Shown in pieces: positions 2,795-42,516 of a DNA stretch of 64,000 nt (the first letter of the stretch is position 1; every line of letters begins with the position of its first letter). The notes beneath the pieces are model-generated. The model was not told the DNA's origin. It did not search any database and saw only the letters and a program-made list of their open reading frames with translations. Origin of the DNA: Candidatus Falkowbacteria bacterium (GTDB lineage Bacteria; Patescibacteriota; Patescibacteriia; CAIXNZ01); contig CAVZGV010000003.1 of the NCBI GenBank assembly GCA_963774955.1, positions 771 to 64,770 on the forward strand. Reading direction: 5' to 3'. The position numbers were made by a program, and so were the translations under genes.

Positions 2795-3416
2795 CAGCAT
2801 CAAAAATGAGGATAGCCAATTTGAATGGAAGACCAAGTCAACATACGATTCCCTGGTAAAACCATAGGGGAATTTTTTATTGAGATTGTTAAGGTCGTCA
2901 TTATTTCTTTGGCCATTATTATTCCGGTGCGTTATTTTTTAATTCAGCCTTTTATGTTAAAGGTGCTTCCATGGAACCCAGTTTTCATGATCATGAATAT
3001 TTGATAATCAATGAAATCGGTTATCGTTTGGATCAGCCACAGCGCGGTGATATTATTGTTTTTCGTTATCCCAAAGATCCGAGTCAATATTTTATCAAAA
3101 GAATTATTGGCTTGCCTGGCGAAAAAGTTAAGATTAAAGATAATAAGGTTTATGTTTATAATGATAAATTCCCAATAGCGTTGAATTAAATGAAGAGGTT
3201 GTATATTGTGAAGATGTGGAGACAACTAATGTGGGTAAATCAGAATTTATTCTAGGCGCGGATGAATATTTTGTTATGGGGGATAATCGTGAGGCTAGTT
3301 TGGATTCTAGAGGATTTGGTCCAGTGCCAAAGCGGTTGATTATTGGCAAGGCCTGGGTTCGTGGCTGGCCATTTGATAAGATTGGTGTTTTTAAACCTCC
3401 ACAATATAATTTTTAA
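2795..3416 (+). pseudogene. lepB: Signal peptidase I, fragmented by frameshifts.
   Basis: GASMEPSFHDHEYL...RGDIIVFRYPKDPSQYFIKRIIGLPGEKV (S26 boxes B-D) in ORF 2971..3189; [17 protein letters not shown]...GKAWVRGWP (box E) in ORF 3216..3416. A one-T deletion in a T-run upstream breaks the TM / Ser-box region. Confidence 0.6.
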
Positions 3417-38505: not shown

Positions 38506-38576
38506 TTCAAGATTATTTAAAGAAATAAGCAAAATATTGTTTTGCATTGGGGTTTTGCTTCTTTAAAATAAAGATT

Positions 38577-39047
38577 ATGAAATGTCCTGTTTGTAATTAT
38601 CAGGAAACTAAGGTTGTTGATTCTCGTGAAGGTTCTGACGGTATTACCATCAGAAGACGCCGTGAATGCTTAAAATGCGGTTTTCGCTTTAGCACATATG
38701 AGCAGGTGGAGCTTTTAGAGGTTTCGGTTATTAAGCGTGACGGCCGCAAAGTAGCTTATGCTCGAGAAAAACTGGAGAGCGGGCTGAAAAAAGCCTTTGA
38801 AAAAAGACCGATTGGCAATGAGGATTTACGAATTTTAGTTAATAAAATTGAAAGAAATATTCAGGCCAGGAAGAAAAATGAGATTACCAGTCAGGAAATA
38901 GGGGAATTGGTTATAAAAGAGTTAAAAAAGAAAGATCCGGTTGCTTATATCAGATTCGCCTCAGTTTATCGGGCTTTTAATAACCTGGAAAGTTTCCAAA
39001 AAGAAATCAATGCGGTTTTTAAAAAGAAAGTTAAACGGAACCATTGA
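38577..39047 (+). CDS. nrdR: Transcriptional repressor NrdR (zinc ribbon plus ATP cone).
   Basis: MKCPVCNYQETKVVDSRE...RRRECLKCGFRFSTYE. Start taken at the internal ATG at 38577. Confidence 0.85.
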   Translation: MKCPVCNYQETKVVDSREGSDGITIRRRRECLKCGFRFSTYEQVELLEVSVIKRDGRKVAYAREKLESGLKKAFEKRPIGNEDLRILVNKIERNIQARKKNEITSQEIGELVIKELKKKDPVAYIRFASVYRAFNNLESFQKEINAVFKKKVKRNH

Positions 39048-39130: not shown

Positions 39131-41173
39131 ATGGGTAAAATTACCAAAATCAAAAAACGTGATGACCGTATCGTTGATTTTGATCTAGCTAAGATTGAAG
39201 CCGCCATTTATAAAGCTATGGAAGCTGTAGGTGATCCTAATCGCAAAAAGGCAGCCAAGCTGGCATTACAACTGGAAAAGGAAGTAAATCATAAATTTCA
39301 TGAACGTACTATTCCGGCAGTGGAAGAAATCCAGGATATAGTGGAAGAGGTTTTAATTAAGGACAAACAAATTAAAACAGCAAAAGCTTATATTATTTAT
39401 CGCGAACAGCATGCTCAGATCAGGAATTTGAAGACCTTGATTGATTCTGACGCCTTAATGGAAGGTTATTTGGTCCAGAGTGACTGGCGGGTCAAAGAAA
39501 ATAGTAATATGGCTTATTCTTTGCAGGGTTTGAATAATCACGTGTCTTCGGCTGTTTCGGCTCATTACTGGTTACATAAAGTTTATCCTCAGGATGTGCG
39601 TGATGCCCATGGCACTGCTGATATCCATATTCATGATCTGCAGACTTTGGCGGCTTATTGCTGCGGCTGGGATTTGCGTGAATTATTAATGAAAGGTTTT
39701 GGCGGGGTGGAGAGCAAGGTTACTGCCAGGCCAGCCAAGCATTTTCGAACCGCTTTGGGACATATTGTGAATTTCTTTTATACTTTGCAGGGTGAAACCG
39801 CCGGTGCTCAGGCTTTTTCCAGTTTTGATACATATTTAGCGCCTTTTATTGCTTTTGATAATTTGGATTATAATAATGTTAAACAGTGTATTCAGGAATT
39901 TTTATTCAATATGAATGTGCCTACTCGTGTCGGTTTTCAAACTCCATTTACCAATATCACCATGGATTTAGTCGTACCTGAAATGATGAAAGACGAGCCG
40001 GTAATTATCGGCGGTAAGTTTCAGGATAAAACATATAAAGAATTTACCAAGGAAATGGAAATGATTAATTTGGCCTTTACTGAAGTCATGACTACGGGTG
40101 ACGCTAACGGCAGAGTTTTTACCTTTCCAATTCCGACTTACAATATTACCAAAGATTTTGACTGGAATAATCCGGTAGTTGAAAAAATCATGGAAATGAC
40201 CTCAAAATACGGTATTCCATATTTTTCCAATTTTGTCAATAGCGACATGAAGCCTGAAGATGCGCGTAGTATGTGCTGTCGTCTGCGCTTGGATAACCGT
40301 GAATTGAGAAAAAGAGGCGGAGGTTTATTTGCGGCCAATCCTTTGACCGGTTCTATCGGCGTAGTAACGATTAATCTGGCCCGGCTGGGTTATGTGGCTG
40401 AAGATAAAAATGACTTTATTGCCAGACTGGAAAAGATTATGATGACCTGCAGGCACAGCCTGGAATTAAAACGCAAGGTGGTAGAAAAATTTACTGAAGA
40501 AGGCTTGTATCCCTATTCCAGATTTTATTTGCAGGATATTAAAAGTCGTTATGGTGAGTACTGGAAAAATCATTTTAATACCATTGGCATTAATGGCATG
40601 AATGAAGCGGCTATAAATTTATTGGGTCAGGACATTACAACTACGGCCGGCCATGAATTTGCCAGAGATATTTTAGATTTTATGCGGGAAAAATTAATGG
40701 ATTATCAGATTGAGAGCAATAATTTATATAATTTAGAGGCAACACCGGCCGAAGGCACTTCTTATCGTTTTGCCAAGGCAGATAAACAGCGTTATCCCGA
40801 CATTGTCTGCGCTAATGAAAAAGCTTATCGCGAAAGAGGGGCTGAACCTTACTATACCAATTCTTCCCAATTACCTGTAGATTATACCGATGACATTTTT
40901 GCGGCGTTAGATTTGCAGGATGATTTGCAAACACGATATACCGGCGGTACTGTTTTTCACGGTTTTATCGGAGAACGCATGCCGTCTTCGGAATCAACAA
41001 AAAATTTAGTCAGAAAAATTGCGGAAAAGTATCATTTGCCATATTTTACTGTTACTCCGACTTTCAGTGTCTGTCCGGTGCACGGTTATATAAGCGGGGA
41101 ACATTTTTTCTGCCCCAAATGTGATGCAGAAATTGGATATGTGGAAAATACCACCCAGGCATTAGCAGCTTAA
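39131..41173 (+). CDS. nrdD: Anaerobic (class III) ribonucleoside-triphosphate reductase, main body. It has an N-terminal ATP cone and ends after the C-terminal Zn ribbon, without the glycyl-radical motif.
   Basis: ATP cone KIKKRDDRIVDFDLAKIEAAIYKAM. The core includes CCRLRLD. The C-terminus ...SVCPVHGYISGEHFFCPKCDAE... then stops. The expected RxxGY / NWNKGK segment is missing from this ORF. Confidence 0.75.
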   Translation: MGKITKIKKRDDRIVDFDLAKIEAAIYKAMEAVGDPNRKKAAKLALQLEKEVNHKFHERTIPAVEEIQDIVEEVLIKDKQIKTAKAYIIYREQHAQIRNLKTLIDSDALMEGYLVQSDWRVKENSNMAYSLQGLNNHVSSAVSAHYWLHKVYPQDVRDAHGTADIHIHDLQTLAAYCCGWDLRELLMKGFGGVESKVTARPAKHFRTALGHIVNFFYTLQGETAGAQAFSSFDTYLAPFIAFDNLDYNNVKQCIQEFLFNMNVPTRVGFQTPFTNITMDLVVPEMMKDEPVIIGGKFQDKTYKEFTKEMEMINLAFTEVMTTGDANGRVFTFPIPTYNITKDFDWNNPVVEKIMEMTSKYGIPYFSNFVNSDMKPEDARSMCCRLRLDNRELRKRGGGLFAANPLTGSIGVVTINLARLGYVAEDKNDFIARLEKIMMTCRHSLELKRKVVEKFTEEGLYPYSRFYLQDIKSRYGEYWKNHFNTIGINGMNEAAINLLGQDITTTAGHEFARDILDFMREKLMDYQIESNNLYNLEATPAEGTSYRFAKADKQRYPDIVCANEKAYRERGAEPYYTNSSQLPVDYTDDIFAALDLQDDLQTRYTGGTVFHGFIGERMPSSESTKNLVRKIAEKYHLPYFTVTPTFSVCPVHGYISGEHFFCPKCDAEIGYVENTTQALAA

Positions 41174-41182
41174 AATTTAATG

Positions 41183-41191
41183 TGCTATAAT
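41183..41191 (+). promoter_or_regulatory. Extended -10 promoter element (TGcTATAAT) just after the nrdD stop.
   Basis: tgctataat; no good -35. Confidence 0.35.
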
Positions 41192-41358
41192 AGGATTAAC
41201 CCCAAGCAAAGGGCATTCCTTGTAGTCGGGGGTAAGTTGTTTTCGTGGAAAATTCAGTTAAAAAATGATATTCAGCCCGGGGCTATCAAATTAGGCTAAC
41301 AAAAATATTTATATAATTGTTGCCGGTTTTTTTAAACTGGCAGCCAGGTGGGAAATTT

Positions 41359-41499
41359 ATGAACACAAGATTACAACGCACACCCTGCGAAGTTTATTCT
41401 CGGATAGTTGGTTACATCCGCCCTGTTAATCAGTGGAACAAGGGCAAACGCGCAGAATTTACTGACAGAAAAGAGTTCAACAAGCAACTAGCCGGGTAG
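41359..41499 (+). CDS. Stand-alone glycyl-radical domain mini-protein, the detached C-terminal radical domain of NrdD (46 aa from the RBS-supported start).
   Basis: MNTRLQRTPCEVYSRIVGYIRPVNQWNKGKRAEFTDRKEF carries the NrdD glycyl-radical signature R-I-V-G-Y followed by NxWNKGK..E..DR. A strong RBS AGGTGGG sits 6 nt upstream of the ATG at 41359. Confidence 0.6.
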   Translation: MNTRLQRTPCEVYSRIVGYIRPVNQWNKGKRAEFTDRKEFNKQLAG

Positions 41500-41592
41500 A
41501 GTTCTTTCAAGGTTCGCCTAAGCTTTGATTAGCTGAAGACAAAATAGCTCGGGTGAGCAAGGGAGGGGTCAAATATAGTTCTTTAAATAATA

Positions 41593-41702
41593 CCAACCTC
41601 AACTTGTAGCGACTGTATAGTTAACAGTTAAGTGCGTCAGGGTACGTATTGGTGCGTTTGGCTGTTAACTATATAAACTACTTGCCGAGGTTGGTTTTTT
41701 TG
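41593..41702 (+). terminator. Long imperfect hairpin (~100 nt) ending in a T8 run. It is either a terminator or a structured RNA between the nrdD-associated mini-ORF and nrdG.
   Basis: ccaacctc...tatagttaacag (loop) ctgttaactata...gaggttgg followed by tttttttt. Confidence 0.45.
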
Positions 41703-41781
41703 TTGTAAAATTAGGCTACAAATATAAAAATCGGCTACAAGTGATTACAGCTTGGGTCGTCTAAGTTAAAAATTTCAGTAC

Positions 41782-41816
41782 ATTTGTAATAATTTGTATT
41801 TATTTGTATATTTGTA
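41782..41816 (+). promoter_or_regulatory. Four direct ATTTGTA repeats at 10/11/7-nt spacing, immediately upstream of the nrdG start.
   Basis: cATTTGTAataATTTGTAtttATTTGTAtATTTGTAacatATG. Confidence 0.35.
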
Positions 41817-41820
41817 ACAT

Positions 41821-42516
41821 ATGATTAAGATTGCCGGACTACAAAGAATGACTCTAATGGATTATCCCGGTAAAGTAGCTACCGCGGTTTTTTTGGCTGG
41901 ATGTAATTTTCACTGCGGTTTTTGTCATAATCCGGAGATTGTGGAAATTAATCCGGATCAAGTAATCATTGAGGAAGAGGATTTTTTTGACTTTTTAAAA
42001 AGCCGACAAGGGTTATTAGACGGCGTTTGTGTCAGTGGGGGAGAACCCTTGATTTATGAGGCGTTACCTGAGTTTTTGAATAAAATTAAGTCTTTAGGCT
42101 TTACCATAAAGTTGGATACTAATGGGCTCAATTTTTCTTTACTGCAAAAAATATTAAAAGAAAAGCTGGTTGATTATATTGCTATGGATATAAAAGCATC
42201 TTTGGCCAATTATCATAAAGTTACTAATATAAAGGCTGATTTTAATAATATTGAGCAAAGCATTAAGGCGATTATGGACAGCGGCCTTGGCTATGAATTT
42301 CGCACTACGGTAATGCCCAGATTTCATAATGAAGAGGAAATTGAAAAAATGGCCCGGATGATTAAGGGCGCGAAAAAATACTATCTGCAGAATTTTCGTA
42401 ATCAGAAAACTTTGGATCCTGAATTTAGGGACGATAATTGCTTTACAGAAGAGCAGTTAGCGGCCTTAAGGCAGATTGCCGCCAAATATGTTAATTTGTG
42501 TGAAATAAGAAATTAA
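41821..42516 (+). CDS. nrdG: Anaerobic RNR activating protein (radical SAM).
   Basis: CNFHCGFCHN CxxxCxxC cluster motif near the N-terminus; 231 aa. Confidence 0.8.
   Translation: MIKIAGLQRMTLMDYPGKVATAVFLAGCNFHCGFCHNPEIVEINPDQVIIEEEDFFDFLKSRQGLLDGVCVSGGEPLIYEALPEFLNKIKSLGFTIKLDTNGLNFSLLQKILKEKLVDYIAMDIKASLANYHKVTNIKADFNNIEQSIKAIMDSGLGYEFRTTVMPRFHNEEEIEKMARMIKGAKKYYLQNFRNQKTLDPEFRDDNCFTEEQLAALRQIAAKYVNLCEIRN

Follow-up and report, generated by a model that had tools for sequence, protein, structure and literature searches.

In a 64,000-nucleotide (nt) stretch of a contig from a Candidatus Falkowbacteria bacterium, called the window hereafter, the anaerobic (class III) ribonucleotide reductase (RNR) appears to be encoded by two genes: nrdD, giving a 680-amino-acid (aa) chain, and a mini-gene, translated separately into a 46-aa protein that bears the radical. 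The probability of this reading was estimated at roughly 0.8. As judged from homologous loci, the arrangement is inherited through large clades of the Candidate Phyla Radiation (CPR) and recurs in DPANN archaea, Spirochaetota and Anaerolineae. The small protein is most likely activated by NrdG and docked non-covalently into the barrel of the large chain. A two-piece NrdD assembling non-covalently was one of several explanations put forward in the original prediction, which was made from the letters of this DNA, and it is the one favoured by the split of the family profile, by selection and by the comparison of loci.

Locus Organization and the Two Open Reading Frames

Class III RNR needs a Gly radical, which is placed by NrdG beside the finger-loop cysteine. 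To our knowledge, the barrel and the glycyl-radical loop lie on one polypeptide in every characterised NrdD; here they are divided between two open reading frames (ORFs) in different frames. From the sequence and the ORF list, the order of the locus is nrdR, the 680-aa nrdD, a 185-nt spacer, the 46-aa ORF, a long terminator hairpin and nrdG, and all features given below are on the forward strand.

The large ORF (39131-41173) encodes the class III RNR barrel and Zn ribbon and lacks the glycyl-radical loop. It matched the Pfam NRDD profile (PF13597, cut-off of 26.2 bits) at positions 1-529 of 562 (E = 1e-182, 609 bits) in addition to an ATP-cone, and its C-terminal end reads FSVCPVHGYISGEHFFCPKCDAEIGYVENTTQALAA, followed by the stop codon. 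The mini-gene (41359-41499; MNTRLQRTPCEVYSRIVGYIRPVNQWNKGKRAEFTDRKEFNKQLAG) supplies the glycyl-radical loop and C-terminal helix of NrdD, matching positions 531-562 of the same profile above the cut-off (E = 1.2e-10, 41.1 bits). Pfam assigned it to NRDD alone and not to the Gly_radical family of the pyruvate formate-lyase (PFL) type. Its motif RIVGY (residues 15-19) aligns with the RIVGY of Thermotoga maritima NrdD, and the radical glycine is predicted to be G18, codon 41410-41412. Residues E11, Y13, S14, R15, G18, Y19, P22, W26, K30, E33 and R37 were invariant in 33 homologues.

Alignment with T. maritima NrdD (4COI) placed the end of the large ORF at residues 547-609 (to CPVCG) and the mini-ORF at residues 613-644 (VDEYMRIVGY and onwards), which puts the break within the three residues that link the Zn ribbon to the Gly loop. 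The proposal that the 680-aa ORF ends after its Zn ribbon without the radical loop, and that a separate ORF 185 nt downstream carries the missing piece, was thus confirmed by both profile and alignment.

All four Zn-ribbon ligands remain on the large chain (codons for CPVH ... CPKC, 41072-41122), where the ribbon aligns to the CPVCG of T. maritima at residues 605-609. The putative ligands, C648-x2-H651 and C661-x2-C664, were invariant in alignment A6, the assignment being made from sequence. Behind the ribbon, the large chain ends in a C-terminal tail, AEIGYVENTTQALAA (41126-41170), whose first seven residues, xEIGYxE, are kept while the remainder varies. Residues E667, G669 and Y670 of the tail were invariant or nearly so in the same alignment, and the motif recurs in CPR and DPANN split loci as AEIGYIE, EEIGYIE, SEIGYVE, EERGYRE, EEIGYVQ and other forms.

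No evident Shine-Dalgarno sequence was seen before the large ORF on reading the sequence. A public protein identical to the large chain (P0241) lies on the same public contig of 565,549 nt as MCX6744242.1, under which the mini-ORF is deposited with the label "hypothetical protein".

Selection and Protein Family

In a comparison of 19 members of the clade of the window, the mini-ORF showed a synonymous difference (pS) of 0.67, near saturation, a nonsynonymous difference (pN) of 0.08 and a nonsynonymous-to-synonymous ratio (dN/dS) of 0.05. The 9-codon leader of the mini-ORF, MNT(K/R)(M/L)QR(T/Q)P, gave a dN/dS of 0.13. The mini-gene and its leader are under strong purifying selection.

Database searches showed the mini-protein to be a widespread family of stand-alone proteins. 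The search with the mini-ORF gave 477 proteins, and the best 120 were all stand-alone proteins of 41-79 aa. In an exhaustive HMMER search, 5148 matches at E up to 0.001 were obtained among 1.84 billion cluster representatives (50% identity); for the profile of the mini-protein, 147 of the best 150 clusters were 48-85 aa long. When the two chains were fused as a query, about 110 of the best 120 large-chain clusters ended at 92-94% of the query, without the radical segment, and only 8 of the best 120 were contiguous, with 709-726 aa. In the NCBI and JGI records the large chains are labelled "ribonucleoside triphosphate reductase", once with "partial", and the small chains "hypothetical protein" or "anaerobic ribonucleoside-triphosphate reductase".

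These data bear on the view that errors of assembly or sequencing created the split or that the locus is a pseudogene in decay, to which we give very little credence. Artefactual breaks do occur among the sampled metagenome-assembled genomes (MAGs), and three apparent breaks were left out for that reason: L011 (2975-3004), with a 1-nt frameshift at a normal 24-nt junction, L079 (about 2794), with a frameshift inside nrdD, and L047, with a run of N. L011 and L079 are probably long-read assemblies. In the window, however, the two frames differ and each frame holds several stops between the ORFs, so a single frameshift or stop error could not fuse them; at least 250 nt would have to be removed. 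The same architecture recurs in dozens of assemblies made independently in different projects and from different phyla, and both parts are under purifying selection, the dN/dS of 0.05 for the mini-ORF being far from the value near 1 of a pseudogene. Neither a complete radical domain in the 680-aa ORF nor a read error that would explain the gap, either of which would have undone the original prediction, was found.

Distribution and Inheritance of the Split

A split nrdD was found in 15 of 80 species-level genomes, these being the 80 most similar to the mini-ORF. The split genomes comprised Patescibacteria, including Saccharibacteria and Dojkabacteria, two MAGs labelled Gammaproteobacteria, Leptospirales and Anaerolineae among the bacteria, and Woesearchaeota, Micrarchaeota, Nanobdellota and unclassified archaea. 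The suggested survey of related CPR genomes recovered the same split in large CPR clades and also beyond them.

In contiguous genes CPxCD and EVYSR were 9, 15 or 24 nt apart, save for two with long linkers (57 and 120 nt); in split genes the distance was 57-278 nt. The spacing of the two ORFs in split relatives varied: 61 nt in L004, 15 nt in L009, 0 nt in L083 and overlapping ORFs in L080, with 18 nt also seen. By taxon, it was 15 nt in a Woesearchaeota genome, the stop codon abutted the ATG in a Nanobdellota genome, and the ORFs overlapped in a Micrarchaeia genome. L004 is a close syntenic relative with the order ftsZ-nrdR-nrdD-mini-gene-nrdG. The mini-gene keeps its place behind the large nrdD ORF in the split loci, and the nrdG gene lies directly 3' of the mini-gene in L004 and in L001 and L003, two of the three Spirochaetota loci.

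A rough neighbour-joining tree was built from the last 330 large-chain residues of 125 loci (72 contiguous, 53 split). In this tree the split genes formed several coherent clades, with about 8 state changes by parsimony. As far as these sequences go, the split state is passed on stably and has arisen, or reverted, more than once. One such case is the Spirochaetota/Anaerolineae subclade with a CPxxH ribbon, whose contiguous member L055 has a 40-residue linker. In addition, the long linker of the contiguous L077 (CPTCDKENNYKEGDAESALKRTKCEVYSR) aligns collinearly with the tail and leader of the split form together, which suggests fission inside an expanded linker.

Some features of these loci were observed apart from the split. 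In Spirochaetota, the ribbon at the split loci is CPxxH...CPxxxH rather than CxxH...CxxC, and a divergently transcribed glutaredoxin gene lies upstream of nrdD (L001:722-1512, L002 and L003), adjoined in L001 and L003 by a ferredoxin-thioredoxin-reductase-like gene; these neighbours suggest a thiol-based reductant for this subclade. L002 (2899-3628) has no nrdG after the mini-gene; an opposite-strand ORF of 106 aa stands there instead, the other flanking genes being alike. Contiguous nrdD genes of at least 1000 aa were seen in some DPANN, CPR and Thermoplasmatota genomes: L077 (130-3183), L015, L021, L028, L038, L054 and P0319. In L077 the extra length is an intein after SMC in the finger-loop region, a site other than that of the split, and P0319 carries a LAGLIDADG domain (PF14528); for the rest, extra length alone was noted.

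The Intercistronic Spacer

The spacer between the two ORFs spans 41174-41358 (185 nt). The Shine-Dalgarno sequence of the mini-gene, AGGTGGG, was found at 41346-41352, 6 nt before the ATG at 41359, as originally proposed, and a Shine-Dalgarno sequence is kept in 19/19 members of the clade. In these 19 folded clade members the ATG is preceded by GGGGA, GGAGG or GGTGG, as it also is in archaeal split loci.

Directly 5' of the Shine-Dalgarno sequence lies an intercistronic stem-loop of 11 bp with a UUUU loop (41319-41344). Single-sequence folds gave a hairpin at this position, with a stem of about 7-13 bp and a U-rich loop, in 19/19 clade members, with at least 6 different stem sequences among them. 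Since the stem sequences differ between members, it is the structure and not the sequence that is conserved, and because no U-run follows the stem, it does not look like a terminator. RNAalifold found no consensus among the 19 short spacers, since MAFFT had aligned them with the arms of the hairpin out of register. Further 5' is a conserved A/U-rich box, AAAAATATTTATATAA (41301-41316 in the spacer listing and alignment), which in short-spacer relatives, with the clade form TAAAAATATTTAxATAAG, follows directly after the large-ORF stop. An RNase processing site or a -10 element would be guesses at its role. The usual order in the clade is thus large-ORF stop, A/U box, stem-loop, Shine-Dalgarno sequence and ATG.

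In the window this order is interrupted by a lineage-specific expansion of about 120 nt (41174-41296), present only in the closest relatives, L085 and L104, and divergent there; it is missing from L004 and from most clade members, in which spacers of 30-60 nt separate the two ORFs. Even between the window, L085 and L104, the middle of the spacer shows little conservation. A promoter-like site, TTAGCA followed after 18 nt by the extended -10 TG-c-TATAAT (41162-41191), overlaps the end of the large ORF and was scored 10/12 plus the TG extension in the promoter scan. The extended -10 that had been noticed at 41183 is therefore present (TGcTATAAT, 41183-41191, with TTAGCA at 41162); TGnTATAAT is kept in the window and in L085 and L104, the two nearest relatives, although the sequence just downstream is poorly conserved. 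Its promoter role is putative, and it may be an internal promoter of the mini-gene. From these elements we infer that the spacer acts as an internal promoter and/or processing site, which would allow the small chain to be produced separately from the large chain and probably in larger amounts.

Two other candidates in the spacer were rejected. The 39-aa ORF at 41180-41299 lacks conservation in L085 and L104, and L085 has no ATG there. The TTG at 41317 as a start of the mini-gene adjoins the A/U box just 5' of the hairpin, and the frame upstream of it shows no conservation. No copy of the spacer or of the 3' region occurs elsewhere in the window, and among the other loci L004 was the sole match; the 11 nt shared by 41288 and 41708, AAATTAGGCTA, are no more than expected by chance (E about 2-4). 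The same spacer has been enlarged independently in other lineages, by GGTTCTATGG and further sequence in L005/L112 (about 2810-3003) and by CGAATCTAC and ATTCGCA repeats in L116 (112-280), these expansions consisting of short tandem or inverted repeats. Hence, the intercistronic spacer seems to tolerate insertions.

A further possibility in the original prediction was that the gap is a self-splicing element of group I intron size, so that splicing, or some other joining at the RNA level, would yield, as it does for nrdD of phage T4, a mature mRNA encoding NrdD as one chain. Introns have been described in phage nrdD genes (PMC3653736). In addition, compared with the contiguous P0106 (CPDCGEECEIYSR), the insert corresponds to 41132-41385, whose 254 nt are of group I size and, being 2 mod 3, would restore the frame on removal; however, the restoration follows from the frames of the two ORFs and is not independent evidence. 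Against an intron, no Rfam family was found at the gathering threshold in the whole 64-kb window, and a search of 40900-41900 at E up to 10 returned only noise (miRNA and tmRNA fragments well below threshold), with no conserved P1-P9 core matched. The 185-nt spacer (41174-41358), whose folding had been proposed as a check, folded no better than dinucleotide shuffles (z = -0.18), and its centre is poorly conserved in the three closest relatives. There is also no room for an intron in homologous split loci, since their spacers are 0-61 nt or their ORFs overlap. Moreover, the residues that would be excised are conserved as protein, in the tail (xEIGYxE) and in the leader (dN/dS of 0.13), as are the ATG and the Shine-Dalgarno sequence. 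RNA-level joining is therefore very improbable, and the intron idea was abandoned. Intein blocks or a homing-endonuclease domain were not found at the break, where there are only the 15-aa tail and the 9-aa leader and the Pfam matches are to NRDD alone.

The two pieces might instead be joined by the ribosome, through frameshifting, readthrough or a bypass of the T4 gene 60 type; in favour of this it can be said that the pieces are adjacent and collinear, and nothing more. The ribosome would have to skip 185 nt with several stops in every frame, the spacers of relatives vary in length between 0 and about 200 nt and share no conserved pair of take-off and landing sites, and the mini-ORF is preceded by a conserved Shine-Dalgarno sequence of its own and starts with a conserved ATG. 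The chance of this mechanism was considered close to nil.

Flanking Genes and 3' Region

Upstream of nrdD, nrdR (38577-39047; Pfam Zn_ribbon_NrdR plus ATP-cone) encodes the Zn-ribbon and ATP-cone repressor of RNR genes; the ORF list gives a TTG start at 38547, and the ATG of MKCPVCNY is the probable start. Downstream of the mini-gene, nrdG (41821-42516; Pfam Radical_SAM plus Fer4_12) encodes the radical-SAM activating enzyme of 231 aa. ARAGORN found no tRNA or tmRNA genes across the window.

Between the mini-gene and nrdG, a terminator was read from the sequence at 41593-41701, its arms being CCAACCTC and GAGGTTGG, followed by T7. About 80 nt are inserted in the terminator loop, where they fold into a nested hairpin (TATAGTTAACAG with CTGTTAACTATA); the insert is conserved in L085 and L104, and in L004 the same terminator stem closes a 4-nt loop. 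The 3' untranslated region of the mini-gene (41500-41592) contains a direct repeat, GTTCTTT(C/A)AA, with one copy after the stop codon and the other before the terminator. The copies flank a Shine-Dalgarno-like GGGAGGGG with no start codon behind it, and the layout is the same in L004, L085 and L104. This layout may be a regulatory element for readthrough into nrdG.

Structure Models and Points Against the Two-Gene Reading

The large chain was predicted confidently by AlphaFold2 (AF2) with a 60-sequence alignment, with a mean predicted local distance difference test (pLDDT) score of 77.6. Foldseek matched this model with a probability of 1.00 to the NrdD of P. copri, S. thermophilus, T. maritima and T4, that is, to the ten-stranded barrel of RNRs and glycyl-radical enzymes. 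Without an alignment, the fused chain reached a pLDDT of 33.

Several points weigh against the two-gene reading. In the AF2 model of the fused chain, residues 670-726 had a pLDDT below 50, the small chain being covered by 8 alignment rows only; the model thus speaks neither for nor against the docking of the small chain. Promoter-like matches in the region were not above shuffles (12 found against 13.0 expected), so that the internal promoter is a consensus match and the argument for it is its conservation in three relatives. We know of no glycyl-radical enzyme biochemically proven to work with an obligatorily separate radical chain, and GrcA, the small radical protein of PFL, rescues damaged PFL and does not replace a segment that was never present. 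For every member of the family, the expression, association and activity of the pair are predictions from sequence. Finally, the window is 64 kb of a contig of at least 565 kb, and a second, full-length nrdD may lie elsewhere.

Stand-Alone Zn-Ribbon and Glycyl-Radical Proteins in Relatives

In related CPR genomes, proteins of about 90-115 aa were observed that combine their own CxxC...CxxC ribbon with a glycyl-radical segment (Pfam NRDD positions 510-562). They lie between a full-length nrdD and nrdG in L059, L126, L128, L129, L133, L134 and L153, and elsewhere in the genome beside a hemerythrin gene in L057 and a rubrerythrin gene in L058. Examples of these ORFs of about 100 aa are L059:3153-3437, L057:2815-3120, L058:2707-3117 and L082:2764-3114. 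A database search gave 356 such proteins, mostly from CPR, one of which (P0188, 171 aa) is fused to a FUR domain, and no description of them was found in the literature searched. By their sequences, they are candidate GrcA-like spare parts for NrdD. The existence of these autonomous versions strengthens the view that the glycyl-radical segment is able to act in trans.

The spare-part idea had also been raised for the 46-aa protein itself, by analogy with GrcA/YfiD. In its strict form, the protein would serve a full-length NrdD encoded elsewhere after cleavage of that enzyme by oxygen, and the 680-aa chain would be a recipient or inactive alone. GrcA/YfiD does act in this way for PFL (PMC13450708; PMC12288474). 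In the loci named above, too, a full-length nrdD is accompanied by an extra stand-alone radical protein; those proteins, however, are of the longer type, with about 90-115 aa and their own Zn ribbon. At all split loci, by contrast, the adjacent large chain is without the segment and the small protein is the only copy at the locus. CPR genomes are also small and usually have few paralogues. A true spare part is hence quite improbable: the analogy holds for the probable mode of action, while "spare" does not fit a protein that is the sole copy of a segment missing from the large chain.

Proposed Mechanism and Significance

In single-chain NrdD, the glycyl-radical domain (GRD) can move: in the P. 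copri enzyme it is a unit able to leave the barrel and is disordered under dATP inhibition, its mobility being part of that inhibition (PMC11226230). This favours, together with the possible promoter of the mini-gene in this lineage, the conserved stem-loop 5' of it and the terminator between it and nrdG, an alternative in which the split is real but the small protein is mainly regulatory, limiting the amount of active enzyme or delivering the radical conditionally, and not a constitutive subunit. From established knowledge of NrdD, however, a large chain without the Gly loop cannot carry out class III chemistry. Because the chemistry needs the loop, any regulatory role would add to an essential structural one, and a mainly regulatory protein is unlikely.

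For the two-gene enzyme with an obligatory radical chain, the following steps are proposed. NrdG with S-adenosylmethionine would take the H atom from G18, probably with the small protein free or loosely docked. The Gly loop of the small protein would insert non-covalently into the barrel of the large chain, and the radical would shuttle to the finger-loop cysteine of that chain, as in single-chain NrdD. Oxygen cleaves the NrdD chain at the radical glycine. More speculatively, a separate radical chain damaged in this way might therefore be exchanged without remaking the 680-aa chain, in a manner like that of GrcA/YfiD but built-in and obligatory, and the strong Shine-Dalgarno sequence, the 5' stem-loop and the internal extended -10 promoter of this lineage might allow an excess of the small chain. 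By analogy, such an exchange or repair function is plausible. A wider proposal is put forward only tentatively, since we consider it possible rather than probable: the 46-aa protein would be a diffusible, exchangeable cofactor, activated by NrdG off the enzyme, next docked into the large chain and swapped after oxygen cleavage, and the CPR proteins of about 100 aa would belong to the same GrcA-like repair and exchange system of class III RNR, one not recognised before.

The glycyl radical sits on a loop buried in the barrel, yet the activase must reach the glycine, and how the segment leaves and re-enters is an open question in the field. A free 46-residue loop protein would be a natural system in which activation, docking, radical transfer and oxygen damage can be studied separately. 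If the exchangeable-cofactor proposal is true, this would be the first glycyl-radical enzyme with its radical on an obligatorily separate polypeptide, and if exchange of the small chain repairs the enzyme, the spare-part idea would extend beyond PFL. Many CPR and DPANN organisms carry the split form, and their DNA synthesis depends on RNR. In annotations, the small gene is mostly a "hypothetical protein" or is not called. Since the small gene is mislabelled or uncalled and the large gene can be marked "partial", metabolic reconstructions may wrongly score such genomes as lacking a functional RNR.

Comparison with Known Systems

In the full text searched, which leaves most subscription-journal papers outside, no account of an NrdD whose radical chain is encoded by a gene of its own was found. 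Single-chain NrdD (T4, T. maritima, P. copri and S. thermophilus) shares with the present system the ATP-cone, the barrel, the Zn ribbon, RxxGY and an adjacent nrdG; it differs in having the Gly loop on the same polypeptide, 3-8 residues behind the Zn ribbon.

The nrdD of some phages is divided into two or more ORFs, as in T4 (I-TevII intron), Lactococcus phage 949, Clostridium phage c-st and Aeromonas phage phiAS4 (PMC3653736). Those interruptions are either removed by splicing of the RNA or the protein, or are recent, unexplained fragmentations in single phages, whereas here there is no intron or intein and the break is always between the Zn ribbon and the Gly loop. For class Ia, a functional RNR large subunit made from two polypeptides, NrdA-a and NrdA-b, is described in Aeromonas phage Aeh1 (Friedrich et al. 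2007, as related in PMC3653736). That split results from the insertion of the homing-endonuclease gene mobE in one phage, unlike the present one, which has no mobile gene between the ORFs and is old and widespread in cellular lineages.

The split class II enzymes NrdJa/NrdJb of Pseudomonas aeruginosa and Thermus phage phiYS40 resemble the present locus in that an RNR catalytic chain is encoded as two consecutive ORFs with a short spacer. Their pieces assemble into an active enzyme, the C-terminal piece being a Zn-finger or redox module (PMC9669993; PMC3653736). They belong to another RNR class, and what is split off are reductant-shuttling C-terminal domains rather than the element that bears the radical, the second piece being a large folded protein.

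According to a review of June 2026, spare-part proteins are known only for formate lyases (PMC13450708). GrcA/YfiD is, like the 46-aa protein, small, separately encoded and homologous to the radical-bearing C-terminal part of a glycyl-radical enzyme, and in both cases activation by the cognate radical-SAM activase and action in trans on a large chain without a working segment are expected. The two differ in family, since GrcA (127 aa, Pfam Gly_radical) is of the PFL type and the 46-aa sequence belongs to NRDD (PF13597). They also differ in need: GrcA backs up a full-length PFL, whereas here the large chain never has the segment, and the 46-aa protein would be obligatory.

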